Below are positions 18,221 to 58,404 of a DNA stretch of 64,000 nt, in pieces. Position 1 is the stretch's first letter, and each line of letters starts with the position of its first letter. The notes under the pieces are model-generated. The model worked only from the letters and a program-made list of their open reading frames with translations, had not been told where the DNA came from and did no database searches. Both the position numbers and the translations under genes were made by a program. The stretch is from UHGV virus genome UHGV-1364441. The stretch is one strand, 5' to 3'. The DNA comes from a virus.

Positions 18221-18240
18221 AATTTTAATTTTCTAACACA
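18221..18240. promoter_or_regulatory. operator-like motif (TGTTAGAAAATT family) overlapping promoter of 18254 gene
   Basis: aattttaattttctaacaca; same motif recurs in at least ten intergenic sites. Confidence 0.5.
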
Positions 18241-28122: not shown

Positions 28123-28135
28123 GTTTCACCAATTA

Positions 28136-28166
28136 TGTTAGAAAATTCTATTCAATTATCTAACAT
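28136..28166. promoter_or_regulatory. pair of inverted operator-like motifs 15-45 bp upstream of rdgC start
   Basis: caattatgttagaaaattctattcaattatctaacataattg: 12-bp perfect inverted repeat arms each containing the TGTTAGA core. Confidence 0.55.
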
Positions 28167-28181
28167 AATTGGATGTATTTT

Positions 28182-31878: not shown

Positions 31879-31935
31879 TCTCCAACCAGAAGAACTGGAA
31901 TGAGTTCATCCCCGCCCAGAAGGGCGGGGATGACG

Positions 31936-41319: not shown

Positions 41320-41343
41320 TCAAATCATTTACGCACTCAAAAT

Positions 41344-41376
41344 GTGTTAGAACATTGATTTTAGTTTTCTAACATA
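41344..41376. promoter_or_regulatory. inverted pair of operator-like motifs upstream of 41417 gene
   Basis: tgtgttagaacattgattttagttttctaacat. Confidence 0.5.
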
Positions 41377-41416
41377 TTATTTTACCGCTCGGAACAAAAC
41401 AGAGTCGGTATACATT

Positions 41417-42412: not shown

Positions 42413-42428
42413 TGAGGTGGATCAAAAA

Positions 42429-43118
42429 ATGAAAGAACGCGGGATGATTTTTAACGATGAGATGGTCAGGGCCATCCTCGAAGGAGGGAAGACGCAGACT
42501 CGCCGACCTGTAAAAAATGTCAGGGCCGATAACTGCCTGGTTATCCGTAAACCGACAAAGAAACGCAATGGTGTCTATACCCACGTTATGGATGCACCTG
42601 AACATGGTTTATGCCCGTTCGGTAACGTTGGTGATCGCATATGGGTCCGTGAGGCGTGGGCGATATTAGGCAATGAGGATGGTTGCAGTGTGGACTGGAA
42701 CGACAACCTTTGTCGTGGCGATGAGAAGAACGCAGCAAGGATTTATCGGGCCAGTTGTGAGCAAAAGCCGGGTGATTACGGCTTGTGGTCGATACCCGAT
42801 GATGCCGACTGGAAACCTCACACTGTGAATGAAAAATTTGATGGCGGGTGGTGTCCATCAATTCACATGCCGCGCTGGGCATCGCGCATTCTTCTGGAAA
42901 TTACCAACGTGCGCGTTGAGCGGTTGAACGATATCAGCGAATGCGATGCAAGGGCTGAGGGCGCACCAACAGAATCGACCCTCATTGGCGATAAGCATTA
43001 CCCAAGTTTCCGTAGCCTATGGAAATCAATTTATGGCGAAGATAGTTGGAACGCTAATCCCTGGGTGTGGGTAATCGAGTTTAAGCGTATTCAGGGGGCA
43101 ACCAGTGAGCAAAATTAA
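42429..43118 (+). CDS. hypothetical prophage protein
   Basis: MKERGMIFNDEMVRAILEGGKTQTRRP N-terminus common in lambdoid prophage proteins; GAGGTGG RBS. Confidence 0.45.
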   Translation: MKERGMIFNDEMVRAILEGGKTQTRRPVKNVRADNCLVIRKPTKKRNGVYTHVMDAPEHGLCPFGNVGDRIWVREAWAILGNEDGCSVDWNDNLCRGDEKNAARIYRASCEQKPGDYGLWSIPDDADWKPHTVNEKFDGGWCPSIHMPRWASRILLEITNVRVERLNDISECDARAEGAPTESTLIGDKHYPSFRSLWKSIYGEDSWNANPWVWVIEFKRIQGATSEQN

Positions 43119-43803
43119 CTATCAAGAACTGCGCGAGGCGGCGGAACAGGCAACGCAAGATGAATGGGTAGCATATATTTTGCCGGGTCATAACGGCATT
43201 TATCCTGCGCGCACGTCTGAGGGTAGGCATTGCGGATACTTTATTGACTGGCCTGGCATTGATGGACAAAGGAATGCTGGTGCTAATGCCCGTTATATCG
43301 CGGCCATCCCACCAAAAGTTGCGCTGGCACTCCTGGGCGAAATTAAGCGCCTGGAGGACACAAATATTGATGCTATGTGCCGAATAGCACCGCTTGAGAC
43401 TAAGCTCGCGGCTCTGGTGGCAGAGAACGCCGGGCTGAAACTCGCAATGGCTGTAACTCTTGATCATGTGTCGGTCACGGATGCAGGGCAGGCCGGAGTT
43501 GCTGCAATGATTATCAACGATGCTCTGCACCACAGCGAAACCCCAGCCACCGATGCTTTTCTGGCTGAAGGGAAGACTGAAGCACGCAAGGAAGGCGCTT
43601 ATTTTGTGGCGAACAGAATGTTGGCAGCCTGGAAAGCTGGTTTTATTGATGATACTGCGAAGAACGCTGCGGATATTGCCCGGATGATCCTTACCTCTAC
43701 TGAGTTTATGACTAATGCGCCGGAAAGCCATTTTGATCGCTCATTCTCTGATGGCGTTCTCGAAGATATCGCCGAACAGCTTCGTAAAGGAGTCATCCAA
43801 TGA
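43105..43803 (+). CDS. Ea22-like protein, paralog
   Basis: GTG start; shares SKI(N/D)YQ.LREAAE N-terminus and [10 protein letters not shown] block with neighbours. Confidence 0.5.
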   Translation: MSKINYQELREAAEQATQDEWVAYILPGHNGIYPARTSEGRHCGYFIDWPGIDGQRNAGANARYIAAIPPKVALALLGEIKRLEDTNIDAMCRIAPLETKLAALVAENAGLKLAMAVTLDHVSVTDAGQAGVAAMIINDALHHSETPATDAFLAEGKTEARKEGAYFVANRMLAAWKAGFIDDTAKNAADIARMILTSTEFMTNAPESHFDRSFSDGVLEDIAEQLRKGVIQ

Positions 43804-44303
43804 GCAAGATTGACTATCAGGCACTGCGTGAGGCGGCAGAGAAAGCAACGTGGGGAGACTGGGACTCATATAAACCACACCGTGGCGCACGTGGTTATGA
43901 GGTCCGACTAAGTAGTCAGGCCATCGCGCAACACGTTCTGAAAAACAACGCTGAATTTATTGCTGCCTTTAATCCAAAGATTGCATTGGCACTACTGGAT
44001 GAACGGGAAAGGAACCAGCAATACATCAAATCCCGCGACCAGGAGAACGAGGATATTGCGCTAACGGTAGGGAAGCTGCGCGAGAAGCTGGAAGCCGCAG
44101 AGAAGCGCATTGCAGAGTTAGAAAGTGGTTCTCAGGCACAAAAGTTAGTTGAAGCAATCATTGTTGCGATAGAAAACGAACAGGAAAGGCTTTTTGATGA
44201 AGATTACCTAATGGATTCGAAAGAATGCATTGACGTAATTCGTGAAGAAGTAAAGCGATGGAATGATTCCCGTGCCGCTGGCATTCGCATCAAAGGAGAG
44301 TGA
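43800..44303 (+). CDS. Ea22-like protein, paralog
   Basis: MSKIDYQALREAAEKAT... N-terminus near-identical in pattern to 43105 gene; coiled-coil. Confidence 0.5.
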   Translation: MSKIDYQALREAAEKATWGDWDSYKPHRGARGYEVRLSSQAIAQHVLKNNAEFIAAFNPKIALALLDERERNQQYIKSRDQENEDIALTVGKLREKLEAAEKRIAELESGSQAQKLVEAIIVAIENEQERLFDEDYLMDSKECIDVIREEVKRWNDSRAAGIRIKGE

Positions 44304-44304
44304 T

Positions 44305-44499
44305 ATGGCAACCAACAACCGTAAAGCAAAGATTCTGTTAGTTCGTAGAAACGCTCCTGGCGTCTGGCAGTGGGTGAGACTCAGCAACCGACGGATGGGG
44401 TTGATGAAATATTACGGGATGATGGATTGTGGTTTTTGCAAAAAGCCCAGCGCGGCGCAAAACCGCTGGAAAAACCATTTGCGCACTAAAGGAGAGTGA
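44305..44499 (+). CDS. hypothetical small basic protein
   Basis: MATNNRKAK...; preceded by aaaggagagtgatATGgc cassette. Confidence 0.35.
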   Translation: MATNNRKAKILLVRRNAPGVWQWVRLSNRRMGLMKYYGMMDCGFCKKPSAAQNRWKNHLRTKGE

Positions 44500-44500
44500 T

Positions 44501-44710
44501 ATGGCTATTGCCGCAAGTTACACCATGCATCTCTATTGTGACTGCCGCCAGTGTACGGAAGGTGTATATCCAGTGCCAGACTTCGGTGAATATATCGGTA
44601 CGTCATGGGCTGGCTGTGCAAAAGAGGCACGTAAGGATGGCTGGCGAATAAGCAAAGACAAAACACGTGCTTTTGCGCCCGGGCATAAAGTTTTGAGGAT
44701 TAACAAATGA
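44501..44710 (+). CDS. hypothetical small Cys-rich protein
   Basis: MAIAASYTMHLYCDCRQCTEG...; preceded by the same 18-bp aaaggagagtgatatggc cassette. Confidence 0.35.
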   Translation: MAIAASYTMHLYCDCRQCTEGVYPVPDFGEYIGTSWAGCAKEARKDGWRISKDKTRAFAPGHKVLRINK

Positions 44711-45396
44711 CCACTTTAACCGACAAAGAACTGATTAAAGAAATCAAAGAGCGTATCAGCAGCCTGGACGTTCGAGACAATATTGAACGCCGGGCTTATG
44801 AAATTGCACTGGCATCGCTGGAAGCAGATCCAGTTGCTTATATTTTCAAACATCCGGCCGGGAAATTATTCTGGGCTTTAACGGATGAAAGCAATAAAGA
44901 GCAACCGGACGTTATTCCTGTTTATGCTGCCGCGCCTGCGTCGGTTGTGCCGGATAATGCATCAGAGCCTCTTGCTTATGCTTACAAAGAGCTTACGCCT
45001 GAGATTATGCGCAACCAGGCTGCCGAATCCAATCGCGGTAATGAGTGGACCGGCAATCCTGATATTGATAACGCCATCATCATGCTCGACCGCATAGATA
45101 CGCTGGAAAATTGCGATGATGACCGTATTGAGGCTGTTAAGGCTGTTTTGCGTAGACTGGCTGGCAACTCTCCGGTAACTCCGGATGGTTGGATAAGCTG
45201 TAGTGAGCGAATGCCGGATAGCAAAACAGCCGTTCTTGTTGCCAGGGAGTTTGACAGGAAAGGTGACTGGCGAATGAAATGGGCGACTTACATCCCGGGG
45301 CATCCTGACGCTAATGATGGGTGGATAATTCCAGGTGCGTCGTGGATACCATCACACTGGATGCCGCTACCAGAACCGCCGCAGGAGGCGAAATGA
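44707..45396 (+). CDS. DUF551-domain prophage protein
   Basis: C-terminal DGWISCSERMPD...WMPLPEPP pattern typical of DUF551. Confidence 0.5.
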   Translation: MTTLTDKELIKEIKERISSLDVRDNIERRAYEIALASLEADPVAYIFKHPAGKLFWALTDESNKEQPDVIPVYAAAPASVVPDNASEPLAYAYKELTPEIMRNQAAESNRGNEWTGNPDIDNAIIMLDRIDTLENCDDDRIEAVKAVLRRLAGNSPVTPDGWISCSERMPDSKTAVLVAREFDRKGDWRMKWATYIPGHPDANDGWIIPGASWIPSHWMPLPEPPQEAK

Positions 45397-45653
45397 TGGA
45401 TGTAAAAGAGAAGGTTTTGCAGGTGATGCGTTCCCGGGCTGCCCTGCAAGATAAAGCTCTCGGCGGGGAATATCCATTCAGGATGGCAACCTGGAATTTG
45501 CGGTTGGCAATGGAGAAGGAATTTCCTGATGAAGAATGGCGCTCGGCAGATTTGCGCAAAATTCTTATGGAGCTGGCTAAAGACGGAACAGTATCCAAAG
45601 ATACCCATGCCAGCCGGATTGGTCAGGCGGTATGGAGACTGGAGGTGAGGTAA
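45393..45653 (+). CDS. hypothetical small protein
   Basis: MMDVKEKVLQ... with GGAGG RBS (ORF track starts 45321). Confidence 0.4.
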   Translation: MMDVKEKVLQVMRSRAALQDKALGGEYPFRMATWNLRLAMEKEFPDEEWRSADLRKILMELAKDGTVSKDTHASRIGQAVWRLEVR

Positions 45654-45934
45654 TGGCTAACCTGCAACTTGCCGTCAAAGGTGAATACTTCGATGACATG
45701 ATTCGCGGGGAGAAAACGGAAGAGTATCGCCTGTGTAATGGCTACTGGAATAAGCGAATCATGTTCCGGGAATATGACCGCCTGATTATCACAAAGGGAT
45801 ATCCGAAGCGCGACGATTCCAGTCGCAGAATAGACGTCCCGTATAACGGATATGAAATCAAGACAATCACACATCCGCACTTCGGTGATAAACCGGTAAA
45901 GGTGTACGCGATAAAGGTGAATATCAATGGCTAA
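45653..45934 (+). CDS. hypothetical small protein
   Basis: MANLQLAVKGEYFDDMIRGEKTEEYR...; RBS GGTGAGG. Confidence 0.4.
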   Translation: MANLQLAVKGEYFDDMIRGEKTEEYRLCNGYWNKRIMFREYDRLIITKGYPKRDDSSRRIDVPYNGYEIKTITHPHFGDKPVKVYAIKVNING

Positions 45935-46379
45935 ATTTCAAAGAGCTATTATTTTTCTGGCTATGTTATCAGCCAGTCATTTATCCCACGCGTCAGTTAT
46001 TGCCGCTGGAGCGGCGGCAACAGCGGCGGCAACAGCGGCGGCAACAGCAGCGGCAACAGCAGCGACCACGGCGGCAGTAAATGCTTCTATCGCCAGCGAG
46101 CAAGCGCGGCGTGCTGCAACCAATGCTTCCGCAAACACCACCACGGTATCAGTCACACAATCAAAACCGAATATAGGCTTTGTTACTTGCGGAAAGAGGA
46201 ATAGCGAAATGGTTGGTTCTCTTGGTTGTGTAATGTGGCAAGAGGACGATAGACCTGAAATCCCGTGGAACTCATGGCCTGGTTACATTCTTGGTAAGAA
46301 GATACCCACCAGCTATGAAGTAAATGCTATTTCATTCGACCAATATAACGGTGTTGCAACGGTGTATTTTCTGTATTAA
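45927..46379 (+). CDS. secreted protein with Ala/Thr repeat tract
   Basis: Signal peptide then AAATAAATAAATAAATAATTAA encoded by tandem 9-bp gcggcggca/acagcggcg repeats. Confidence 0.5.
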   Translation: MAKFQRAIIFLAMLSASHLSHASVIAAGAAATAAATAAATAAATAATTAAVNASIASEQARRAATNASANTTTVSVTQSKPNIGFVTCGKRNSEMVGSLGCVMWQEDDRPEIPWNSWPGYILGKKIPTSYEVNAISFDQYNGVATVYFLY

Positions 46380-46391
46380 CACGGAGTAATT

Positions 46392-46685
46392 ATGTGGCGT
46401 GGTAATAGTCATGGCAGAAGCCAGATGATACTTACCGAATATACGTTAGACCACAAAACCAATAAATCACGCTCAGTATATTTGCTTCGGCACAATAGCC
46501 GCGTAAGGAATACCGTGCTGGAGCAAAATCTGACCGTTGAAATGGATAATTTTGGGAACTTCAAGCCAACAATAGCGCTTGATGATTTTCCGCGTGGTTT
46601 AAGCGAAAGAGAAGCAATGCTTAAATTAGCAGAATGGCTACAGAGATTAAGTATTGCTATTGAAGATAACTGGAGCAATCCGTAA
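46392..46685 (+). CDS. hypothetical protein
   Basis: 97-aa ORF. Confidence 0.4.
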   Translation: MWRGNSHGRSQMILTEYTLDHKTNKSRSVYLLRHNSRVRNTVLEQNLTVEMDNFGNFKPTIALDDFPRGLSEREAMLKLAEWLQRLSIAIEDNWSNP

Positions 46686-46925
46686 TGAAAAATAAAAAGT
46701 TTTGGTCTACGTTTTTATTTGTCTGTGTTTGTGGCTTTTTTGTTGCTTTAGCTGGTGGCGTAGAATGGGGAACGGAGAACTGCGGCGTAATGGTTGGTGA
46801 CACCTTATTACTCGCGGGCATGTTAGCTTTTATTCGTTCATGAGAAAGATTCAAACCACCAGCAATATTATTACCCCTGTCGTTACGGCAGGGGGCTGCA
46901 ACACTGTGTAATTGAGTAATTTTAT

Positions 46926-47300
46926 ATGATGACATTCAAACATTTTCTTGACCGTCCATTATGGGCGGCAGCCGCAGGCTATGACTTTAATTATATGGAT
47001 TGCATGTCTTATACCGCCAATGCATACGACCATTCCTTCAGTCTGCTGTTTAATTCTTTAAGAATATTGCCGCAAACAGAAGTTGGAGAGCTTCATTTAT
47101 GGCTATTGGGCTTTATCGCGGCTGGAGTTGGTATTGCTGTATGGCCTTTTATTTTCTGGCTGGTGGCTGTTGTAGTGTGGTTTAAGTGCAAGGCATACCG
47201 GAATAAGTATTTCTTAGGTGATGGAATGACTGATATTGCCAAAAGGAACATTGAAAATTGGACCAAAGAATGCGAAAAGAAATGGAGCAACAAGAAATGA
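46926..47300 (+). CDS. membrane protein
   Basis: Hydrophobic stretch LWLLGFIAAGVGIAVWPFIFWLVAVVVWF. Confidence 0.45.
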   Translation: MMTFKHFLDRPLWAAAAGYDFNYMDCMSYTANAYDHSFSLLFNSLRILPQTEVGELHLWLLGFIAAGVGIAVWPFIFWLVAVVVWFKCKAYRNKYFLGDGMTDIAKRNIENWTKECEKKWSNKK

Positions 47301-48013
47301 CCAGAATCACTAAATTGCGCATATCAGAGATTATTGCACGCATCGAAATGTATGGACACGGTGCTGGATATACGGCAGATGAGGTGTTGGAGCTTGCCAA
47401 AATAGCGTTAGCAACCTGCAAGGATGGTGAAACCATAAAGCTGATTGACTTGTTGGTGCAGGAGCTGCCAAAGCGTGGAGGGTGGCCTGATGATGTGCTC
47501 GATTGTCGCATGGTTAGAGAGGACGAGTATGAACCATCATATGGCCTCTTTGCTTTTGGCTCTGACCCAGCAAAAAGCCTGCGAGGACGCCATTTTTGCC
47601 TTGAGGTCAGACTCCCGATAAGTAACCTTGATCGTGAGGAATACACGGAAATAATTTCGCGCAAACAATACGAAGAGGCTCTAGAAGCATCCAGTAAGTT
47701 AAATTTTGAGCAATGGCTGGAACAGCAACGCGGGAAAATCGATGTGGACTGTGGTTGTGTGTCCACTGAAACATTCATGCACTGGCTGCGGGTAGCTTAC
47801 GAGGCTGGCAACCATCCGGATTTTCCGGATAGTTCCCAACAATCGCCCAAGAAAAGCGTAAAAACCACTCTGGAAAGAGGCTATCTTGAGGCCGCATTAA
47901 AGATTAAGCCGGGCCATACGCTAGGCGTCATTGATGCCATGTTGGTTCATGAAATGGCGAAGGCTTTATTGCCGCTGGTGGCTGATAAAATTCCGAATAA
48001 AGCCGATATCTGA
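47297..48013 (+). CDS. hypothetical protein
   Basis: Start MTRITKL by ATGA coupling (ORF track 47258). Confidence 0.45.
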   Translation: MTRITKLRISEIIARIEMYGHGAGYTADEVLELAKIALATCKDGETIKLIDLLVQELPKRGGWPDDVLDCRMVREDEYEPSYGLFAFGSDPAKSLRGRHFCLEVRLPISNLDREEYTEIISRKQYEEALEASSKLNFEQWLEQQRGKIDVDCGCVSTETFMHWLRVAYEAGNHPDFPDSSQQSPKKSVKTTLERGYLEAALKIKPGHTLGVIDAMLVHEMAKALLPLVADKIPNKADI

Positions 48014-48052
48014 TCACCATGCTAAAATCCCCTCAATTCACAGAGGGGATTT

Positions 48053-48325
48053 TTGTATATGTTGCATAGAGTTTTATGGAAAAGCGTTATTGTCGGCGCG
48101 ATCTTGGCTATGTCTGGGTGTGCTATGGTGCAATACAATGACGGAGAAAAGGTTAGCATCCAGTCAGATGGTTGGTATGGCCTGGATAGCCTGCAAAAAA
48201 CAGCGGATAAAGCCTGCCAGCAATACGGAAAGTCTAAAGCCGTATATCAGCATAGTGCTAACGCTAATCCTCATCTTGCGCCCGGAACAGGCGTTCAGAA
48301 TACCATCTGGAAATGTGAGCCTTAA
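48053..48325 (+). CDS. lipoprotein
   Basis: Signal peptide with lipobox (AILAMSGC). Confidence 0.5.
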
Positions 48326-48327
48326 AT

Positions 48328-48579
48328 ATGAGCGACTGGAATATTGCAGCTAAAAGTCAGGAAGAACGGGATAAGGTTAACGTTGATCTGGCTGCCAGCG
48401 GTGTGGCGTACAAAGAGCGATTGAACATACCTGTCATAGCTGAACAGGTAGCCCGCGAGCAACCAGAGAATCTGCGCACCTATTTCATGGAACGGCTACG
48501 GCACTACCGGCAGTTAAGCCTCCAGTTGCCAAAAGGGAGCGATCCGGTGTATCAGAACGAGGATGCACCAAAAAAATAA
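48328..48579 (+). CDS. hypothetical protein
   Basis: 83-aa ORF. Confidence 0.4.
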
Positions 48580-48702
48580 CGGCAAGATGGGGGAGAAATG
48601 TGATTAGCCCCCAGCGTGGCGCGCCTACAAACCCAGCTTTCACAAACTATGCCTTTTCAATGTATACTGTATGAATAAACAGTATCATTAAGGTAAAACG
48701 CT

Positions 48703-49092
48703 ATGGGCTTCCCTTCTCCTGCGGCGGATTATGCAGAGAGCCGCATTTCTCTTGATCAGCAACTAATCAGACATCCTTCCGCGACCTACTTCATGCGGGC
48801 GGCAGACAGCCATCACCGTGAGGGAATATTGCAAGGTGCTTTGCTGGTGGTTGATTCCTCACTTACTCCGGTTGATGGTTCACTGCTTATATGCGCTATG
48901 GAGGGTGAATATCGCATAAAGAGATACAGGAAATATCCGCGCCAGCACCTGGAGGATTTAAGCACCGGGAAGAAAGAGGCGTTACCAGTAGATGACGATG
49001 GATGCACGGGCAGTAATGCTGTTTTTGGTGTGATCACTTATGTCATTAATGATGCCAGAAGTGGGGAGTTTGATTATAGACCTGTGATTTAA
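48703..49092 (+). CDS. humD: HumD/UmuD'-like S24 peptidase-fold protein
   Basis: GFPSPAADY...HPSATYF..A.DS...G.L.G.LLVVDSS collinear with UmuD lacking the N-terminal arm, as in P1 HumD. Confidence 0.75.
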   Translation: MGFPSPAADYAESRISLDQQLIRHPSATYFMRAADSHHREGILQGALLVVDSSLTPVDGSLLICAMEGEYRIKRYRKYPRQHLEDLSTGKKEALPVDDDGCTGSNAVFGVITYVINDARSGEFDYRPVI

Positions 49093-49137
49093 GGCGCATA
49101 AAGAAGCCCGCCAGACCAGGCGGGCTTTTTGTTGATA

Positions 49138-50232
49138 TCATTCAATGATTTTTTCGGCTGTCAGCCAGCTAATTTCATGCCTGTCTTTCGGCGGTTTTAG
49201 CATGTGAGCATATTCAGCGACATGCTCCCACGGAATTGTTTTTGCCCACTCAACGATAGCATTGTGATCTGCAGTGAAGAGTGGAATAGTGTGCGATTTC
49301 AACCATTCTAATGTCGTGACGCCATGTTTTTTGGCGTGGTGCTGCGCATGATGCCGGGCTATCACTCGTAATGGCATTGTCCATTCACTACCATCAGGCA
49401 TCGAAAAGCGCATTGTCTTCGGCATATCTGATTCAAGAACAGCCTCCCTAATACCAGGGAACTCACCAAGAATCATACGACGATAGTCATCACTATTTCG
49501 CCCGCCATACCTTTCGGCAAAATGATCAAGATATTCTTGGGTAATAAATGGTGAATCCTCCGCACTCAGCTTAATGGCTTTATATACACCACTCGTATTA
49601 TCTTCAGCTAAAGCACGTCCATGATGTGAATCATAAAAAAAGCCTATTTCCTCTGGTGACGGAATTGAAGTGAGCAATATGCGTGAATCACCACTAGTCA
49701 TGCTTGCCCACACAATGCTGTATGCCCGATCGCTGATATGTGCGGAATCCACAATAATGAATAAAAGATGGTCGGCGTAGTGACCTGCAATGCTATCTTC
49801 ATAGTTAAGGCGGTAGTTACAAAAGCACATTCCCCAAAATTCATTGAACATCAGACCGCTATCACCGACCTTAAAATACTCAATGATAAAAGGTTGTTTT
49901 TTCAGCAATGCCTCCCAACATTGCCACACATATGCAACAATTCCTCTTTTGCAAGCATTTGATTTTGGATAAACAATTACTGTCCGGGAATCAGGATACA
50001 TAATCGTATAAAGGGTACTAATAACAGCAAGCACTTGCGGTCGTCCGATCCCATACGGAGTGGTGACAGTAGCTTTTGCATTATTGGGCTGTATAGCTTC
50101 AACAATTTGTTGTTGCTGGTGGCTTAAATCAATATCAAACAATTCTTTTGCTGCCAGTACCCAATTGTCTTTATATTTCTCCACCAGCGACAGCCAGCGC
50201 GGATCTTTATAAATATTGCTCTTAGTCGCCAT
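49138..50232 (-). CDS. terminase large-subunit paralog with degenerate ATPase motifs
   Basis: Collinear with the PacB-like TerL at 55532..57040 (DPRW..., SHQQQ.I...Q, AGHYADHLLFIIVDSA, GFFYDSHH, ED.PF.T..., YGGR) but Walker A GHGTGKS replaced by TPYGIGRP and Walker B ILDEAS by IIVDSA; shorter C-terminus. Confidence 0.6.
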   Translation of the reverse strand: MATKSNIYKDPRWLSLVEKYKDNWVLAAKELFDIDLSHQQQQIVEAIQPNNAKATVTTPYGIGRPQVLAVISTLYTIMYPDSRTVIVYPKSNACKRGIVAYVWQCWEALLKKQPFIIEYFKVGDSGLMFNEFWGMCFCNYRLNYEDSIAGHYADHLLFIIVDSAHISDRAYSIVWASMTSGDSRILLTSIPSPEEIGFFYDSHHGRALAEDNTSGVYKAIKLSAEDSPFITQEYLDHFAERYGGRNSDDYRRMILGEFPGIREAVLESDMPKTMRFSMPDGSEWTMPLRVIARHHAQHHAKKHGVTTLEWLKSHTIPLFTADHNAIVEWAKTIPWEHVAEYAHMLKPPKDRHEISWLTAEKIIE

Positions 50233-50989
50233 CTGCCACTTCCTTAACTTCTTCTTTGGCCTGTTCTGCAATCGCCGCACGGCATTTCGCCCTGGCTGTA
50301 GCGATTGCTTCAGCTCGCACATCGTCTGGAATCGTTGACGTGATATACATATCCAGTTCTTCGGCACGGAATACTGTTTGGTCCAGATATTCGCGTAGCA
50401 TCCAGGTAAATTCGAAATCACACGCGATAATCTCTGCGCTACCTTCTGCACCATTTGGGAAATGAATAAATGCCTGTTTAGCCAAACCGATAACACGACA
50501 TGCGGTTGCCAAAACAGCGACAACCAGGTTTACATTTTCACACGCTACGGGCTGATTAACGCCGGAGATTACTCCATTTAACTGTCGGTTATATGGAAGG
50601 TAGTTTGAGATGCGTTCTACGCGCCATGTGCCAGTCAGGCTGCCATTTTTAAATATAATTGGTGTAACGGATAGCCCAAGCTCGCGTATAAGTCGTTGCG
50701 CTATAGCAGGATCATTAAACAGGTCTAATGCTACACATTCGAAAGACTGCGCAAGGGCAAACAGTTCTTCCAGAGAGTAGTCTTTGCCCCTGGCGGTGAT
50801 GTAACGACGAACGCCGCTGTCTGCATCACTCCATATAGCTACGCCATGCTCTTCATTCAGCTCTTCATTAAAGCCGAGATACGTCATGATAGTGCGTTCA
50901 ATCGTGTCAAACGGCAGTGACATGTCGGCGTTAACAGCCACCAGCAGGCCATTACGCAAGCGGTATTGAATTGTTTTAGTGCTTTCCAT
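50222..50989 (-). CDS. hypothetical protein
   Basis: 255-aa ORF overlapping start of TerL paralog. Confidence 0.45.
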   Translation of the reverse strand: MESTKTIQYRLRNGLLVAVNADMSLPFDTIERTIMTYLGFNEELNEEHGVAIWSDADSGVRRYITARGKDYSLEELFALAQSFECVALDLFNDPAIAQRLIRELGLSVTPIIFKNGSLTGTWRVERISNYLPYNRQLNGVISGVNQPVACENVNLVVAVLATACRVIGLAKQAFIHFPNGAEGSAEIIACDFEFTWMLREYLDQTVFRAEELDMYITSTIPDDVRAEAIATARAKCRAAIAEQAKEEVKEVADGD

Positions 50990-50995
50990 GTCAAA

Positions 50996-51658
50996 TCACT
51001 CCACAACAAACCAGTCACAGGCCAGCAGGTCGCCAACTGAAGGCACCCACGGAACAACTACACCTTGTGCATTTTTTAAGGCGAAATAAGCACCATACGG
51101 AACGAGGTCGCCGGGGAAATATCCCTTAATGGCTTCCATTCGTGCCGGGTACTGTCCTTCGGGAACCAGCCAGCAGAATTGGTTTTCGCCGTTCCACCCG
51201 CGTCGAGCAACTTTCTTGCCATCCTTCAACCACATCAGCGCGTCAGAAAAGTCGGCTGCTTCAAGGTCGATTTCTTCTTGTAGAGTAGCGATACCGCCAG
51301 CAGAAATAGTTACGTCCCTGGCTGTAATGAATGTCACCCCATTGTGACCTTCAATGCTGAGCGATACCCCATTTTCGGAGGCGTCGTTAACCCGGCTATA
51401 GCATTTTTCAAATGCTTTCTCTGGCACATAGACCAGATAACCATTTTCAGCAGTGACGAGATATCCTCCTATTTGCGGTCGGAACTTTTCCAAGAACACA
51501 CCATCAACACGAAGCGTCATTCCTTTTGGCTCCACGACTTCGATGCTGCCAAAAATGGGCGCATAAGCTTTGCCGACAATAACAATATCTTTGATTTTCG
51601 ATGCCCGAATGATGCTGTGGCATTTGTATTTGGGGAACACCTGAAAAGTGCTGGCCAT
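50996..51658 (-). CDS. two-domain protein with possible DUF2829-like C-terminal domain
   Basis: C-terminal FSDALMWLKDGKKVARRGWNGENQF...GDLLACDWFVV resembles DUF2829 consensus as I recall it; family call tentative. Confidence 0.4.
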   Translation of the reverse strand: MASTFQVFPKYKCHSIIRASKIKDIVIVGKAYAPIFGSIEVVEPKGMTLRVDGVFLEKFRPQIGGYLVTAENGYLVYVPEKAFEKCYSRVNDASENGVSLSIEGHNGVTFITARDVTISAGGIATLQEEIDLEAADFSDALMWLKDGKKVARRGWNGENQFCWLVPEGQYPARMEAIKGYFPGDLVPYGAYFALKNAQGVVVPWVPSVGDLLACDWFVVE

Positions 51659-52981: not shown

Positions 52982-53037
52982 AGCACCCTCCTAAATAGGC
53001 GAGGGTACTTTACAGCAAAGGCGTTAATCTAAAAAGA

Positions 53038-53051
53038 TGTGTTAGAAATTT
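53038..53051. promoter_or_regulatory. operator-like motif upstream of 52981 operon
   Basis: tgtgttagaaattt. Confidence 0.5.
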
Positions 53052-53054
53052 AAT

Positions 53055-54083
53055 TTACGAATCCATCAGGCGGCTATTAGCCCCCACAGACACGCCACCA
53101 CGGCGAAGATACCGCATAAGTGTTTCCGGTTTCTTCCAGGTTCCTTCCTGCATGATCTCCACCATAGACACCTGCTTTTCAGCCATATCAATAGCGGCCC
53201 CGACGCGTGCACTATGCCCGGTCCACGTCCGGTATCTTCCTTTGTTTGGCGTAGCATCTCTTTTATTCAGCAACACCCAGGCGTCGCTGAATATTTTCTC
53301 CATTGCAGGTGCAGTAAGGGGCGTTGTCGTGATCCTGGCCTTATTGCTACGGTGTATCGGCGGGAACAGCACTGCGTCAGGATGTTCGCGAAGCCCGGAA
53401 ACATCCAGCCAGTCATTCAGCACAGCGGTAGTGCGACGGGAAAGCACCTTATCAAGCCCGGCGGCGGTCGTTATTGTCTTCGTGTGTGAAATATGTAGCG
53501 TGACAGTGTCACCTGTTTGGTCCAGATCTCCTACACGAATACGCGAGATTTCCGACATACGCATCAGCGTATTGTATGCAACAAAGAGAAAAGCCCGGTT
53601 GCGCAGATCCACCAGCCGTTCTGACCTGGACAACAGGACGTCGAGCAGTTTCAGATCGTCCCACCGCAGCGGTATAGCCTGGCCTGTTCGTTCGCCTTTT
53701 TCAGTTGCCGCTTCGCGCCGGATGCGCCGCATAGCCAGAGAAACACTTTTATCATCCGAAAGTGGCGGAAGGCCACAATGCGAAAGCAGCATGTTCAGCA
53801 TGGCGTAGTGCTTATCAATGGTGGTCGAAGCCAGATCGGCATCATGCAGCTGAAGAAAATACTCGCGGGCCATTTCTGGTGAGATCGGAAACCAGGCAAG
53901 CTGGCGAGCGTGACACCAGCGCGCCCAGGAATGAAACACCAAACGGAGGTCGCGCAGAGTATTCGGCGCATAAGCTCCCTGGTCATTCATGAACCGCATA
54001 AAGTTTTCTGCGGCTTCCTGGTACTCTTTGCCAATGTTGCGCAGAAAACCACCGGAACTGCCAGAGATAATTAATTCACTCAT
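53055..54083 (-). CDS. cre: Cre-like tyrosine recombinase
   Basis: Collinear with P1 Cre as recalled: WFP..PE..R.Y.L.L, SVSLAMRRIRRE, RMSEISRIRVGDL, HISHTKT, WTGHSARVGAAIDMA, EIMQEGTW; catalytic R-H-R-Y context retained. Confidence 0.85.
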   Translation of the reverse strand: MSELIISGSSGGFLRNIGKEYQEAAENFMRFMNDQGAYAPNTLRDLRLVFHSWARWCHARQLAWFPISPEMAREYFLQLHDADLASTTIDKHYAMLNMLLSHCGLPPLSDDKSVSLAMRRIRREAATEKGERTGQAIPLRWDDLKLLDVLLSRSERLVDLRNRAFLFVAYNTLMRMSEISRIRVGDLDQTGDTVTLHISHTKTITTAAGLDKVLSRRTTAVLNDWLDVSGLREHPDAVLFPPIHRSNKARITTTPLTAPAMEKIFSDAWVLLNKRDATPNKGRYRTWTGHSARVGAAIDMAEKQVSMVEIMQEGTWKKPETLMRYLRRGGVSVGANSRLMDS

Positions 54084-54439
54084 GAAACTATTTAACCTCT
54101 ATATACAGATGACGCTACGCGAAAAATATAAAAATGACAGGGTAGCTATAAGTTAATTTTCAAGATTCAAGCCTTTGATTCGAGGCACGTATTTTCAGTG
54201 ATGTCAATACTGATCATCTACCCATGATTATAGCCTAACTTTAAATAATGCCAATTATCTAAAGTTAGAAATTTAGGAATTTTTTTTCTTTCCGCGCAGA
54301 TGGGCAATGCATTGCTGGTGTGGGCTTTAAGTTATGCCTGGCAGTTTTTAAGCAGAATTTTCTAAATTGGATGATAAAAAAATGCATCTTGATCCTTTAC
54401 TCACCCTGTTATTCGGCATAGATTTGTCATAGTAATTTT

Positions 54440-54452
54440 ATGTTAGAAAACT
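54440..54452. promoter_or_regulatory. operator-like motif 17 bp upstream of 54469 start
   Basis: atgttagaaaact; a second partial copy at ~54262. Confidence 0.5.
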
Positions 54453-54468
54453 AAATCGAGTAGGAATA

Positions 54469-55506
54469 ATGAGTAAGAAGTCGATCGAGAAAGAGTACAA
54501 ACGGTTCCTGCAAACCGCTGAACGGTGGAAAGAGCTGGTGGTCGCAAACTCTGTTTTCCATGATACCAGTTATTCCGGCGAGGAATTCCGCCATGTTGCA
54601 CTAACACATGATCAGAATGTGCTAGAAGAAGCTGAAAAGTGCCTCACAGAATGGAAAGCCTTTGTTGACTTGTGCCGTAACGCTGACGGCAAAGCGTCTA
54701 ACATTGTTGAGTCTGTATATTCTCCGATCCCATTCATTATCGAGGACACAAATCAAAGCACGCATATTGTTGTGCAAAGCGCGACCACCACCCGCTCATT
54801 TACGCGCGAAAATCTGCTCAAAAAATATGATGCAATTATAAAGAAAAGCCTGAAAAACAAGATATTTTCGCAGATTGTTGGTGCACTTGAAGAAGAGCGC
54901 CGTTTTTTCGCATCAGAACCTGAAGGGGAAGTTTACCGGGCGCGCAAAGATGGATACACAGATGTAGTGCTTACAACAAACATTGAAGGCAGCAATGCTC
55001 TGTCACGATTCAGGGTAGGCGCACACGGAGCCTTAGTGTTCGCAAAACTTCCGAACACCACAGTGCCCGTTGTTAATAATGTCGGCGAACGTCGCAGCAT
55101 TACTATTTATTCTGGGGTTGAGTCGATACCTTGCGGCCTGCTTGGTGACTTTAGTCTCTATCGCGTTCGCGATCTGGAGAAACACCAACCAAGCTATGTT
55201 GCGAAGTCATACATCTTGCGAAACATCGACATCCGCAATGAGAGCTTAAAGAACAAATCAGCCAAAATGCTTGAGGAAGCCGATCCGGCTATTCGCCATA
55301 TCATTGAGCGTAAAATACAGACAGCACGCGAAGCGATGGCGCGACTGAATAAAATGGATCTGGAGTTGTTAGACGTAATGATGACATCCGGAGATGACCT
55401 GACAGGCATAAAACTGACAGACGCGCGGAAAAGATACGGTAAAACCATAGAAGAACGTTACGGGTTCACTTTCTCCCAAACACAGCACGCCGCTAAACTC
55501 TGGTAA
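54469..55506 (+). CDS. hypothetical protein (candidate regulator in the pacB-cre interval)
   Basis: 345-aa ORF with operator motifs in its own promoter; no family recognised. Confidence 0.45.
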   Translation: MSKKSIEKEYKRFLQTAERWKELVVANSVFHDTSYSGEEFRHVALTHDQNVLEEAEKCLTEWKAFVDLCRNADGKASNIVESVYSPIPFIIEDTNQSTHIVVQSATTTRSFTRENLLKKYDAIIKKSLKNKIFSQIVGALEEERRFFASEPEGEVYRARKDGYTDVVLTTNIEGSNALSRFRVGAHGALVFAKLPNTTVPVVNNVGERRSITIYSGVESIPCGLLGDFSLYRVRDLEKHQPSYVAKSYILRNIDIRNESLKNKSAKMLEEADPAIRHIIERKIQTAREAMARLNKMDLELLDVMMTSGDDLTGIKLTDARKRYGKTIEERYGFTFSQTQHAAKLW

Positions 55507-55531: not shown

Positions 55532-57040
55532 TTATATATCCAGATCTGGCATTTCCACATCTGCAAGAACCTGATCGCGGAAGGTAGCCATTTCAGCGCC
55601 GATATCTTCATTAGCAGGAACATAGTCCACCAGCATTGTAAAGCAGTAGGTATCCCATCGGTCAGGTGATTTGATGTTCAGCTTTTGCCGCATGTGCTCC
55701 TTGCGCATCATCGCCATCTTCCCTTCTTCATTAAGTAAAAAGGGGATTTTTGACGCTTGCTCTGCCGTTTTAGGGTCACTGTCTATTCGCATACGACCTG
55801 ACTTTATGGCATCACGAGCCATAATATTTGCGTAGGCACGCTGGTTAACAAAACGCTCCTTGTCTTTGTTCGAAAACATGGGTTTCCCCCACCGAATCCG
55901 TACCGGATTAGCCCCACGGCGCACCAGCTGCGCACAGGTATCTGAACCAAAACCGTCTGCGTCAACCGCGATTGTAATATTCGGGTATTTATCCGGCGTG
56001 CATTCGTTGTATATAAAGTCAGCAAAAGCCAGCGGGTCCATAGTCCCTGGCATTTCCATTACCTTAAAGTTAACAACACGCCGCTTTTCCCGGTGACCAG
56101 ACACTTTACAGATATTAAGAACTGACTTGTCTCGCCCGTTACCAACGTCAGCAGTAGCCACCCATCCCCAGTTTTTCTCCAACAACACCTTGCGCCGCGC
56201 AGCGCGATCGCATTCATCACGACCAAGCAAATAGCCGTTAATCTCCCGAGGAAACTGACCAAGAACCTTGACCATGTACTCAATAGAATCGCGCCCGCCA
56301 TATTCCAGGAGTTTCTGCCTGATGAATTGTGGTGTGACGAACGGTGATTCTTCTGAGTTAAGAACAATTGCTGTCCAGATCCCTTTCGGGTTGTCTGGGG
56401 TTTTAGCTTGAGAATGGTGCGAATCGTAGAAATAACCACTTGGCCTTGTTGGCTGGGATAGCATCAACATTCGGTTATCTTCTTCAGTCAGAGCGCCAGT
56501 CATTACGCCGATCGCTTTATCAGATATACCTGATGCTTCATCCAGAATTAGAAGCAAATGTGCCGCGTGCTCCCCCGCCAGAGCTTCTTCGTTACCGAGT
56601 CGATAGCCTTTGCAGAGAACTTCCCAGATCCCCTTTCGAGAGCGTTCATAAAACATGGTGTCAGACAGGACAAAATAGGTCTGTAACCACCCATGACGCT
56701 TAACGGCATTCGCCCAATACTGTTTAACGTATTTAAATACACCTGTCTTAACCTGACCTATTTTGTTAGCAACAATGATGACACGGGCATCGGGGAACAG
56801 AATCAAATAAATCAGCAACAACATAGCCGTTAGCGACGATTTCCCTGTACCGTGACCAGAGGTAACAGTGGTTCTGCTCCCTTTTTGCTGTACGGACTGG
56901 ATAATCTCCTGCTGCTGGTGGGAGGGAAACATCCCGAATATATCAACAACAGCCTGGGTAAAGTTGTAGCGGTATTTGATTACCATATCGCGCCAGCGTG
57001 GATCGCTGGTGACGCATTTAATCTTGCGCCCACCAGCCAT
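55532..57040 (-). CDS. pacB: terminase large subunit (PacB-like)
   Basis: Walker A GHGTGKSS, Walker B LLILDEAS, ~500 aa, directly downstream of small-subunit-like gene. Confidence 0.8.
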   Translation of the reverse strand: MAGGRKIKCVTSDPRWRDMVIKYRYNFTQAVVDIFGMFPSHQQQEIIQSVQQKGSRTTVTSGHGTGKSSLTAMLLLIYLILFPDARVIIVANKIGQVKTGVFKYVKQYWANAVKRHGWLQTYFVLSDTMFYERSRKGIWEVLCKGYRLGNEEALAGEHAAHLLLILDEASGISDKAIGVMTGALTEEDNRMLMLSQPTRPSGYFYDSHHSQAKTPDNPKGIWTAIVLNSEESPFVTPQFIRQKLLEYGGRDSIEYMVKVLGQFPREINGYLLGRDECDRAARRKVLLEKNWGWVATADVGNGRDKSVLNICKVSGHREKRRVVNFKVMEMPGTMDPLAFADFIYNECTPDKYPNITIAVDADGFGSDTCAQLVRRGANPVRIRWGKPMFSNKDKERFVNQRAYANIMARDAIKSGRMRIDSDPKTAEQASKIPFLLNEEGKMAMMRKEHMRQKLNIKSPDRWDTYCFTMLVDYVPANEDIGAEMATFRDQVLADVEMPDLDI

Positions 57041-58404
57041 TAGTCATCCTCCGGCGGTTCTATCGCAATATCATCATCTCCGGCGTCATACCCTGCATCT
57101 GATGCATCATAATCACCGTAAATTTCAGCCGTTGCCGAAGGGTCAATGTCCAACTCTTCATCGTTGGCCTCGAATTCCCCAGCCTTACGCTCGCCATTGT
57201 GGTCGTAATCTCCGCACCCCAGATCTTCAACAATGGTTGCCACATCCGCCCGGCGCTCTGCCAGCCATTGCGGATGGTTAGCCTGAAGCGATGCAAACTC
57301 CTTCGCTTCTTTGTCCAGCTGTTCATCATCAACATCATTGATGTCAGAAACTGGAGGTTCGAGAAGAGTGATAGCTTTCGCCGCGCGCGCCGCGAGGATA
57401 GCCGGGACACTGACACCCTGACGCTCGATGTATTCAGCAACACCGATATCGTCCAGCTCCTCGCGCTCACGCATACGTATAGCGGCGGCGATAACTCTGG
57501 CTGCGCGTGCGTCAGCGCCAATGCGATATTCAATCTCTTTGCCACGCTGTTCGGCCTGTAGGCGTGCTAATTCGAGTTTTTCTCTGGCCTCGGCCTCTCT
57601 GAATGCTTGCTGGCGAGCACCCTGACGAAGTTTTTCATCACCCTGTCGCAGCTTTTGTTCGGACTGATATATCGCTGCCAACCTACTGATAAAATCGTTC
57701 ATGTAGTAGGCCGCGTCACTGATTAGACCGAGAAGTCGCTGCCCAGGGTGCATTCCTTCTGGCTGTTCATCACCCAGGGCGTCTATCTCCGCCTGTAGGC
57801 GTTCGGCCTCCTGATCAACAATGCTTTGGTACTGAAGTGCGCGTTCTTGCGCCATTTGAATTGCTAACCGCAGGTGCTCTTCTGCGCCGTTCTTCATCAT
57901 GTCGCGAGCCACACTCGTAGTGGGCAACGTGGCACGCTGCACAGCACCGCCAGGGATCATTGCTGAAGATCCCTCGATTTTTGAGGCGCATTTATCTTCG
58001 GTGGGGATCATTTTCGCCATTTTTTCGCGCAATGATCTCCTGACAGATTCTTTTATCTCATTGTTATTATTTGCATTATTTTCATGATCCGAAGTTTTCT
58101 TTCTCGGCATACTTCGGAAAGAACCTGTGCCCTGTGAATTGTCAATTTCTGTAAATTTTGTTGTTTCTGTACCCTCTTCTGGTCTTTTTTTTGCTCTTCC
58201 TGCCCGTTTTTTTTGAGGTGATTTGGTGCTTTTTTTTGTAGTCTTCACCTGCGACCGCACCTCATTTTTTTTCATATTGAGATGCTTTCTGGCGGTATTG
58301 AAGCTAAGGTCGTGTTGCTCGCAGTATTCCTTTACGGTGATCCCTTTTTCTTCACGCAACGCTATAAATTTGGCGCGGTGCTCTTCCCAATTAACCAGAC
58401 TCAT
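57040..58404 (-). CDS. pacA: terminase small subunit / pac-recognition protein (PacA-like)
   Basis: N-terminal HTH-like segment, Lys-rich linker, acidic C-terminus; contains a GATC-rich pac-like cluster within its coding sequence as in P1 pacA. Confidence 0.55.
   Translation of the reverse strand: MSLVNWEEHRAKFIALREEKGITVKEYCEQHDLSFNTARKHLNMKKNEVRSQVKTTKKSTKSPQKKRAGRAKKRPEEGTETTKFTEIDNSQGTGSFRSMPRKKTSDHENNANNNNEIKESVRRSLREKMAKMIPTEDKCASKIEGSSAMIPGGAVQRATLPTTSVARDMMKNGAEEHLRLAIQMAQERALQYQSIVDQEAERLQAEIDALGDEQPEGMHPGQRLLGLISDAAYYMNDFISRLAAIYQSEQKLRQGDEKLRQGARQQAFREAEAREKLELARLQAEQRGKEIEYRIGADARAARVIAAAIRMREREELDDIGVAEYIERQGVSVPAILAARAAKAITLLEPPVSDINDVDDEQLDKEAKEFASLQANHPQWLAERRADVATIVEDLGCGDYDHNGERKAGEFEANDEELDIDPSATAEIYGDYDASDAGYDAGDDDIAIEPPEDD
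57955..58089. other. pac-like cluster of five GATC sites in TGATC(A/G)-type contexts
   Basis: GATC at 57955, 57968, 58006, 58034, 58086 within 135 bp, two on one side and three on the other of a ~35-bp core. Confidence 0.5.

Follow-up and report, generated by a model that had tools for sequence, protein, structure and literature searches.

A dre gene and a natural rox allele in a D6-like plasmid prophage

Dre and its target site rox, of phage D6, were reportedly described by Sauer and McDermott in 2004 (Nucleic Acids Res 32:6086). The chemistry of Dre, its specificity for rox and its independence of host factors are covered in the literature (PMC4777119, PMC12331466, PMC7438526). The canonical site, as annotated in the D6 record AY753669 and as found in the literature, is TAACTTTAAATAAT GCCA ATTATTTAAAGTTA; the published sequence and its 14-4-14 description match (PMC4777119; PMC12331466; oligonucleotides in the PMC6486577 supplement). 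Formally, rox is a 14-4-14 site and loxP, the target of Cre, a 13-8-13 site (PMC4777119; GenBank AY753669 annotation). When rox is centred on loxP, it has 12-nt arms, three differing positions per half-site and an 8-nt crossover region (PMC7438526, PMC4777119). Mutagenesis suggests a functional crossover region of about 8 bp in both sites (PMC4777119), and Rec-seq handles rox as half-site positions 5–16 flanking an 8-bp core (PMC6486577). Because the centre-aligned arms match loxP save for three positions per half-site, and because the crossover region is about 8 bp, rox is lox-like in its geometry. The two systems are heterospecific (PMC7438526, PMC12331466), and K43, R259 and G263 of Cre are reported as the residues that discriminate rox from loxP (PMC7438526).

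Here we compare with these systems a recombinase locus in the viral genome UHGV-1364441, of which a stretch of 64,000 nt was analysed; we refer to this whole stretch as the window. We conclude with high confidence that the locus is the Dre/rox recombination module of an E. coli D6-like plasmid prophage of the P1 family, which would resolve multimers and circularise DNA, and that its variant rox allele is tolerated. The recombinase gene, the site and their neighbours are arranged as follows.

53055–54083, minus strand: dre, encoding the tyrosine site-specific recombinase Dre, 342 aa, 100% identical to D6 Dre.
54236–54267, no strand assigned: rox, 32 bp, with left arm 54236–54249, spacer GCCA 54250–54253 and right arm 54254–54267.
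54259, no strand assigned: top-strand T>C, the only departure from canonical rox, at site position 24 in the c1-proximal arm.
54469–55506, plus strand: c1, prophage repressor homologue and divergent neighbour of dre, 90% identical to D6 C1.
55532–57040, minus strand: pacB, terminase large subunit, collinear with D6 pacB.
57040–58404, minus strand: pacA, terminase small subunit, containing the densest GATC cluster of the window.

The recombinase had been assigned to the Cre family and called divergent from Cre in a first-pass annotation made from the sequence alone, and both statements hold. The protein matches the Pfam family Phage_integrase (PF00589, 5e-17), which places it among the tyrosine recombinases, and its best relatives of solved structure are Cre structures (E = 5e-69); it shares 41% identity with Cre across 322 aa and is not Cre itself. 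All 342 of 342 residues match D6 Dre (AAV84949 of AY753669; D6_118 of MF356679), so the enzyme is not a new divergent Cre relative but Dre itself, the already known recombinase of phage D6 that is widely used in genome engineering. A megablast search of the region against phage records returned Escherichia phage D6 as the sole match, and the matched D6 region carries the annotations "dre: tyrosine recombinase", "c1" and "region of crossover (rox) site for Dre recombinase". In a scan of genome contigs we found no close Dre, only relatives of 41–47% identity, of which Pantoea, Erwinia, Rahnella and Mixta genomes contain many.

Alignment to Cre places the catalytic set of Dre at R175, E178, K202, H290, R293, W316 and Y325, corresponding to R173, E176, K201, H289, R292, W315 and Y324 of Cre, and these residues agree with the published set (PMC4777119). 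In the alignment with Cre, which the first-pass annotation had proposed for the DNA-contact residues, Dre has R, P and K where Cre has the discriminating K43, R259 and G263. At the nucleotide level, dre differs from D6 dre by 27 substitutions, 27 of them synonymous and none nonsynonymous. Since all changes are synonymous, dre is under strong purifying selection in the lineage of the window. For c1, which is of similar length, the comparison with D6 gives 111 synonymous and 36 nonsynonymous codon differences.

The surroundings of dre are those of a D6-like plasmid. Of the 64,000 nt of the window, 52,969 (83%) are collinear with D6 (MF356679) at 84–97% identity, and the matched D6 span runs from 36.4 kb through the end and start of the record to 10.3 kb. 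The shared content comprises tail, head, pac, c1 and plasmid-maintenance genes, and the local gene order, namely dut, two ORFs, dre, rox, c1, pacB and pacA, is that of D6. E. coli plasmids such as pTB423 are about 99% identical to the window (99.1% for pTB423 over the dre/rox locus), and with a 6.5-kb probe, coverage reaches at least 80% in 108 PLSDB plasmids. Judged by sequence, the window belongs to a D6-like plasmid prophage of the P1 family and represents about 64 kb of its roughly 91 kb; the other 27 kb or so could carry a second site, though D6 has a single annotated rox. Within pacA, the densest GATC cluster of the window (57955–58080) holds five GATC, including TGATCC/GGATCA hexamers; by analogy with P1, we take it as a candidate for a P1-type pac site under Dam control, located about 3.7 kb from rox.

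Several stretches of the window depart from D6 or carry features of their own. A segment of about 6 kb (42415–48606) has no D6 match and is variable cargo of the phage-plasmid, with two Ead/Ea22-like proteins and a DUF551 protein; adjoining it, the D6-matching stretch 48703–49092 encodes an S24-peptidase protein (UmuD/HumD-like). From 49138 to about 50226 on the minus strand lies a paralogue of the N-terminal ATPase domain of PacB (37% identity over 258 aa) with degenerate motifs (GHGTGKSS to PYGIGRPQ and LILDEASG to FIIVDSAH); it has no Pfam match and sits in a stretch without a D6 counterpart (49085–50248). A 220-aa ORF at 50996–51658 on the minus strand carries a C-terminal Tad2-like (Thoeris anti-defence 2) domain (PF11195, 1.6e-22), and its D6 homologue is shorter. 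ARAGORN identified four tRNA genes at 60324–61518 on the minus strand (Met-CAT, Ser-TGA, Thr-TGT and Arg-TCT); the D6 annotation has three at collinear positions (Ser, Thr and Asn) on the plus strand, so that number, one identity and strand disagree. Finally, a perfect 12-nt GC-rich inverted repeat, TCATCCCCGCCC AGAA GGGCGGGGATGA, at 31906–31933 is probably a terminator; it lies in a 512-nt stretch without a D6 match, where D6 has RelE/HigA addiction genes.

The interval between dre and c1 extends from 54084 to 54468, as the first-pass annotation had it, c1 starting at 54469. That annotation had found no lox-like site there and had described only an inverted repeat with 9-nt arms and a 16-nt spacer. 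The repeat is present, as CTAACTTTA/TAAAGTTAG with 16 nt between the copies, although at 54235–54243 and 54260–54268 and not at 54236–54270. It forms the outer part of a larger dyad with 15-nt arms that are 93% complementary and separated by 4 nt. Read with 14–15-nt arms, one mismatch and a 4-nt spacer, this dyad is a lox-like site: the sequence TAACTTTAAATAAT-GCCA-ATTATCTAAAGTTA (in full, TAACTTTAAATAATGCCAATTATCTAAAGTTA) has 31 of its 32 bases in common with the annotated D6 rox (AY753669); left arm and spacer are exact, and the right arm carries one substitution. The substitution at 54259 is half-site position 8 from the centre and turns the canonical half-site TAACTTTAAATAAT into TAACTTTAGATAAT. 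Because this mismatch breaks the dyad, only 9-nt arms had been seen, and a single mismatch thus sufficed to hide rox from a search for perfect 13-8-13 geometry.

A systematic search for dyads, which had been suggested as a check on the absence of a lox-like site, overturned that absence. Allowing 14-nt arms with at most one mismatch and a spacer of 2–10 nt, we found dyads at two places in the 64-kb window; of 20 mononucleotide shuffles, 18 contained none and two contained one. The half-site TAACTTTAAATAAT, at up to two mismatches, occurs just twice in the 64 kb, both times within the rox dyad, and no loxP half-site (ATAACTTCGTATA arms, 34-bp site with an 8-bp spacer) exists within two mismatches in the window. 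The site sits between dre and c1 in the same spot and orientation as in D6, 152 nt from the ATG of dre and 201 nt from that of c1. The distance to dre is also 152–153 nt in relatives with 70–90% identical Dre, and both arms, apart from the T>C allele, are invariant in relatives with Dre down to 70% identity. The suggestion that the cognate site might have another architecture is correct for the formal description, 14-4-14 against 13-8-13, and fails for the geometry, which is the same as that of loxP once the centres are aligned.

To place the substitution among natural sites, we surveyed plasmid and viral sequences. Among about 190 PLSDB plasmid records with a rox-like site, 110 carry the canonical sequence, 33 an ACTA spacer and 28 the allele of the window; hosts of the last group are E. 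coli, Shigella, Salmonella and E. fergusonii. Our scan of IMG/VR viral contigs, which accepted a site if one arm was perfect and the innermost 5 nt of the second arm matched, recovered 31 true rox sites, 23 with two perfect arms and eight with one mismatch. In eight of eight, the mismatch is T>C in the c1-proximal arm; no other arm variant occurs among the IMG/VR sites with one perfect arm. The C allele accompanies both 100% and about 90% identical Dre alleles and three types of right flank. We rejected a strict association of the C allele with the lineage-specific block right of rox, as the window-type right flank accompanies the canonical T in CP149812 and L148, and the block is missing from four records with the C allele. 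Spacers vary as well: sites with perfect arms and other spacers (L078–L080, L102 and L126) include the ACTA form of the 33 plasmid records, GCTA occurs with a 70% identical Dre, and CCCC with a 99.4% identical Dre. Together these make up a catalogue of natural rox alleles, with one arm variant and several spacer variants, which is a by-product of modest practical value.

Published data offer some guidance on what the C allele would mean for Dre. The Rec-seq source data of PMC6486577 give the canonical base an enrichment of 1.93 at position 8 and 1.86 at position 8'; ordinary rox positions range from 1.5 to 1.9, and positions 6 and 7 are highest at 2.4–3.1 (PMC6486577). The changed base corresponds to A12/T64 in the numbering of PMC7438526 and is among the three positions at which each half-site of rox departs from loxP; it belongs to the modelled interface of R44 (R43 in that paper), P259 and K263 (PMC7438526). 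Since the base falls in this modelled specificity interface, some loss of affinity for the C allele is possible. The purifying selection on dre, the persistence of the allele, the weak specificity at position 8 and the module junctions within the site nevertheless argue that the C allele is likely functional. We infer that the window rox is a tolerated, recurrent natural allele on which Dre is active, and not a decayed site.

The module junctions emerged from comparisons of flanking sequence. To the left of rox and through its spacer, the window is 94–100% identical to D6, and the two first differ at site position 24; to the right, about 130 nt are unrelated (about 63% identity), followed by mosaic similarity. 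Contig L104 has the opposite relationship to the window. Over dre and its leader (window positions 53021–54235) its identity is 69–89%; here it shares the left flank of pTB422 and L141, without a difference, to within 3 nt of rox. Once rox begins, L104 is 95–100% identical to the window. L104 therefore combines the other dre module with the window-type c1 side, and D6 (L001) is the converse, with both junctions within the 32-bp rox. It follows from the comparisons of L104, D6 and the window that left and right modules occur in several combinations with the junction inside these 32 bp.

Both module types can reside in one cell. The E. coli strain ECCNB20-2 carries pTB422 (L090, NZ_CP034789), a 159-kb IncFIB plasmid in which a cassette flanked by IS903B/IS26 holds a dre-like gene and a canonical rox, together with pTB423 (L091, NZ_CP034790), a D6-like plasmid with the variant rox; the two share the same crossover core. 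An IS-flanked dre-rox cassette is also found on an IncHI1B plasmid (L086, AP024695). Because such IS-flanked cassettes lie on IncFIB and IncHI1B plasmids, the dre-rox module has been captured by plasmids that are not phages.

The junctions at rox are consistent with what Dre-mediated exchange between co-resident plasmids would be expected to produce. Homologous recombination could in principle generate the same breakpoints, if the conserved 32 bp served it as a brief stretch of identity. If Dre were responsible, the T>C polymorphism and the spacers GCCA, ACTA, GCTA and CCCC may be under selection as variants that modulate or restrict exchange, and spacer changes in particular could limit cross-recombination of co-resident plasmids. 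A broader proposal would have rox act as a natural junction at which D6-like plasmids and IS-borne cassettes swap halves, its arm and spacer variants being selected and a promoter in the rox spacer placing Dre under self-repression; we regard this combination as speculative and rather doubtful. The signs that rox marks module boundaries in phage-plasmids are a further by-product of the analysis.

Could the substitution instead have crippled the site? It would then abolish or strongly cut Dre binding at a specificity position, and the module would be decaying. Of the three base pairs that set rox apart from loxP (PMC7438526), one is indeed the changed one, and every other natural arm position is invariant, so the arms are normally under strong constraint. 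Even so, we judge a crippled rox to be very unlikely. A decaying module is at odds with the 27 synonymous and zero nonsynonymous changes of dre relative to D6, and a strong binding defect with the preference at 8/8', which at about 1.9-fold is at the Rec-seq baseline. The allele is also kept in 28 plasmid records from four species and in eight viral contigs, in several backgrounds, and a module junction falls inside a site that carries the C allele. The tolerated allele therefore remains our preferred reading of the window rox.

The dyad also has features of a control region, which involve a candidate promoter and a repeated motif.

54227–54254, minus strand: candidate sigma-70 promoter directed towards dre, with 11 of the 12 consensus positions matched.
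54436–54454, plus strand: best-scoring copy of the motif (A/G)TGTTAGAAA(A/T), a candidate C1 operator of the D6 type; 14 nt separate its end from the start codon of c1.

In the candidate promoter, the -35 hexamer TTGGCA (54254..54249) lies over the rox spacer and the -10 hexamer TATAAT (54232..54227) 3 nt outside the left arm, with a 16-nt spacing across that arm. The -10 hexamer is kept in both left-module types despite their diverged flanks. By its sequence, this promoter may function in dre expression; because its -35 hexamer coincides with the rox spacer, Dre bound to rox would then occlude its own promoter. Autoregulation of Dre through a promoter embedded in rox is thus a testable suggestion.

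The 19-nt motif (A/G)TGTTAGAAA(A/T) occurs in 11 copies at up to one mismatch in the window, where 1.7 are expected. A weight matrix separates 13 sites of at least 17 bits from a next-best score of 11.7. The motif is found at 18225, 28131/28152, 35348, 36960, 37618, 41340/41361, 53035, 54436, 58867, 62586 and 62742, with dyads at 28131–28170 and 41340–41379 and with copies just upstream of c1, upstream of an lpa-like gene and just 3' of dre. It is probably the D6-type C1 operator. The first-pass annotation had reported that the repeat overlaps operator-like motifs, which is partly borne out: a sub-threshold copy, TCTAAAGTTAGAAATTTAG (9.3 bits), spans 54258–54276, covering the outer end of the right arm and the lineage-specific flank, and this is probably what had been noticed. 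A P1-type C1 operator overlapping rox was sought and rejected, the P1-type consensus having no match in the window within three mismatches. Nor does T>C create a C1-operator-like sequence, as the score is 9.3 with C and 13.0 with T, both far below the clear sites.

On these features, the dyad might be taken as mainly a transcriptional control element, a promoter or operator serving dre, c1 or the two together, rather than a recombination site. Its best support is the 11/12 promoter match with the -35 hexamer on the spacer and the -10 hexamer beside the left arm, conserved across diverged lineages, together with the sub-threshold motif over the right arm. The promoter scan, however, yields about 1.7 sites per shuffle at the threshold used, and the operator-like match of 9.3 bits compares with at least 17 for the 13 clear sites. 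The sequence is moreover that of an experimentally defined Dre substrate (PMC4777119, PMC12331466), and any regulation would supplement its role in recombination without supplanting it. We consider it extremely improbable that control is the main role of the dyad. That the true cognate site lies elsewhere on the plasmid, with the dyad beside dre being incidental, as had also been proposed, has next to no chance of being correct, despite the roughly 27 kb of plasmid outside the window, because the dyad is rox and lies inside the examined interval 152 nt from the dre start codon, the 64 kb contain neither another rox half-site nor a loxP half-site within two mismatches, D6 has a single annotated rox at the same location, and the 152–153-nt distance to dre is kept in relatives with 70–90% identical Dre.

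As a site-specific recombination module, the locus would work as follows. One Dre monomer would bind each rox arm, and two rox sites would synapse in a Dre tetramer. Tyr325 would cleave within the central ATGCCAAT region, and strand exchange would proceed via a Holliday junction with no accessory proteins. This outline draws on publications about Dre and Cre (PMC4777119, PMC12331466, PMC7438526) and on what Sauer and McDermott reportedly described in 2004. In a plasmid dimer, the two directly repeated rox sites would be resolved to give monomers, allowing the low-copy prophage to segregate faithfully. After infection, rox copies in the terminal redundancy would support circularisation of the terminally redundant DNA, a role to which rox may be suited, given the distance of about 3.7 kb between it and the probable pac site. 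By analogy with P1, multimer resolution and circularisation are the most likely roles of Dre/rox here, and D6-like plasmids have been described as using Dre/rox for multimer resolution (PMC6799933).

The value of this analysis is mainly that of a correction: a Cre-like recombinase flagged as an "orphan" is the genome-engineering enzyme Dre, located beside its published target. The system itself, Dre/rox in a common D6-like phage-plasmid, is already known, and the understanding of it is unchanged.

The closest known system is Dre/rox of phage D6 itself (AY753669, MF356679), with which the window shares 342 of 342 residues, 31 of 32 site bases, the GCCA spacer, the orientation and the gene order. 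It differs from D6 in the T>C at 54259 and the 27 synonymous changes in dre, and also in the unrelated stretch of about 130 nt to the right of rox, a C1 of 90% identity and several cargo blocks. Cre/loxP of P1 is alike in having a Cre-type tyrosine recombinase with the same catalytic residues and a single site beside the recombinase gene, in the part of a plasmid prophage devoted to immunity and packaging; its arms, aligned by their centres, are the same save for three positions per half-site, the functional crossover is probably 8 bp in both, and multimer resolution and circularisation are the presumed roles. In contrast, the proteins are only 41% identical, rox has 32 bp (14-4-14) and loxP 34 bp (13-8-13), and the Cre specificity residues K43, R259 and G263 are replaced by R, P and K. 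The layouts differ too: in P1, as annotated, about 430 bp separate lox from the start of cre, an interval that holds cra and three promoters, all of them clear of lox, whereas in the window dre starts 152 nt from rox, the candidate promoter overlaps rox, and no loxP half-site with up to two mismatches is present. Because the window protein is identical to Dre, its heterospecificity with Cre/loxP would be expected to carry over. Panto/pox, Nigri/nox, Vika/vox and VCre/VloxP also belong to the Cre-type family and use lox-like dyad sites, but their enzymes are at most 41–47% identical, their sites are others, and none of them is encoded here. In VloxP, the two arms naturally differ at one position (PMC6486577), and the asymmetric natural rox of the window therefore has a precedent among the known systems.
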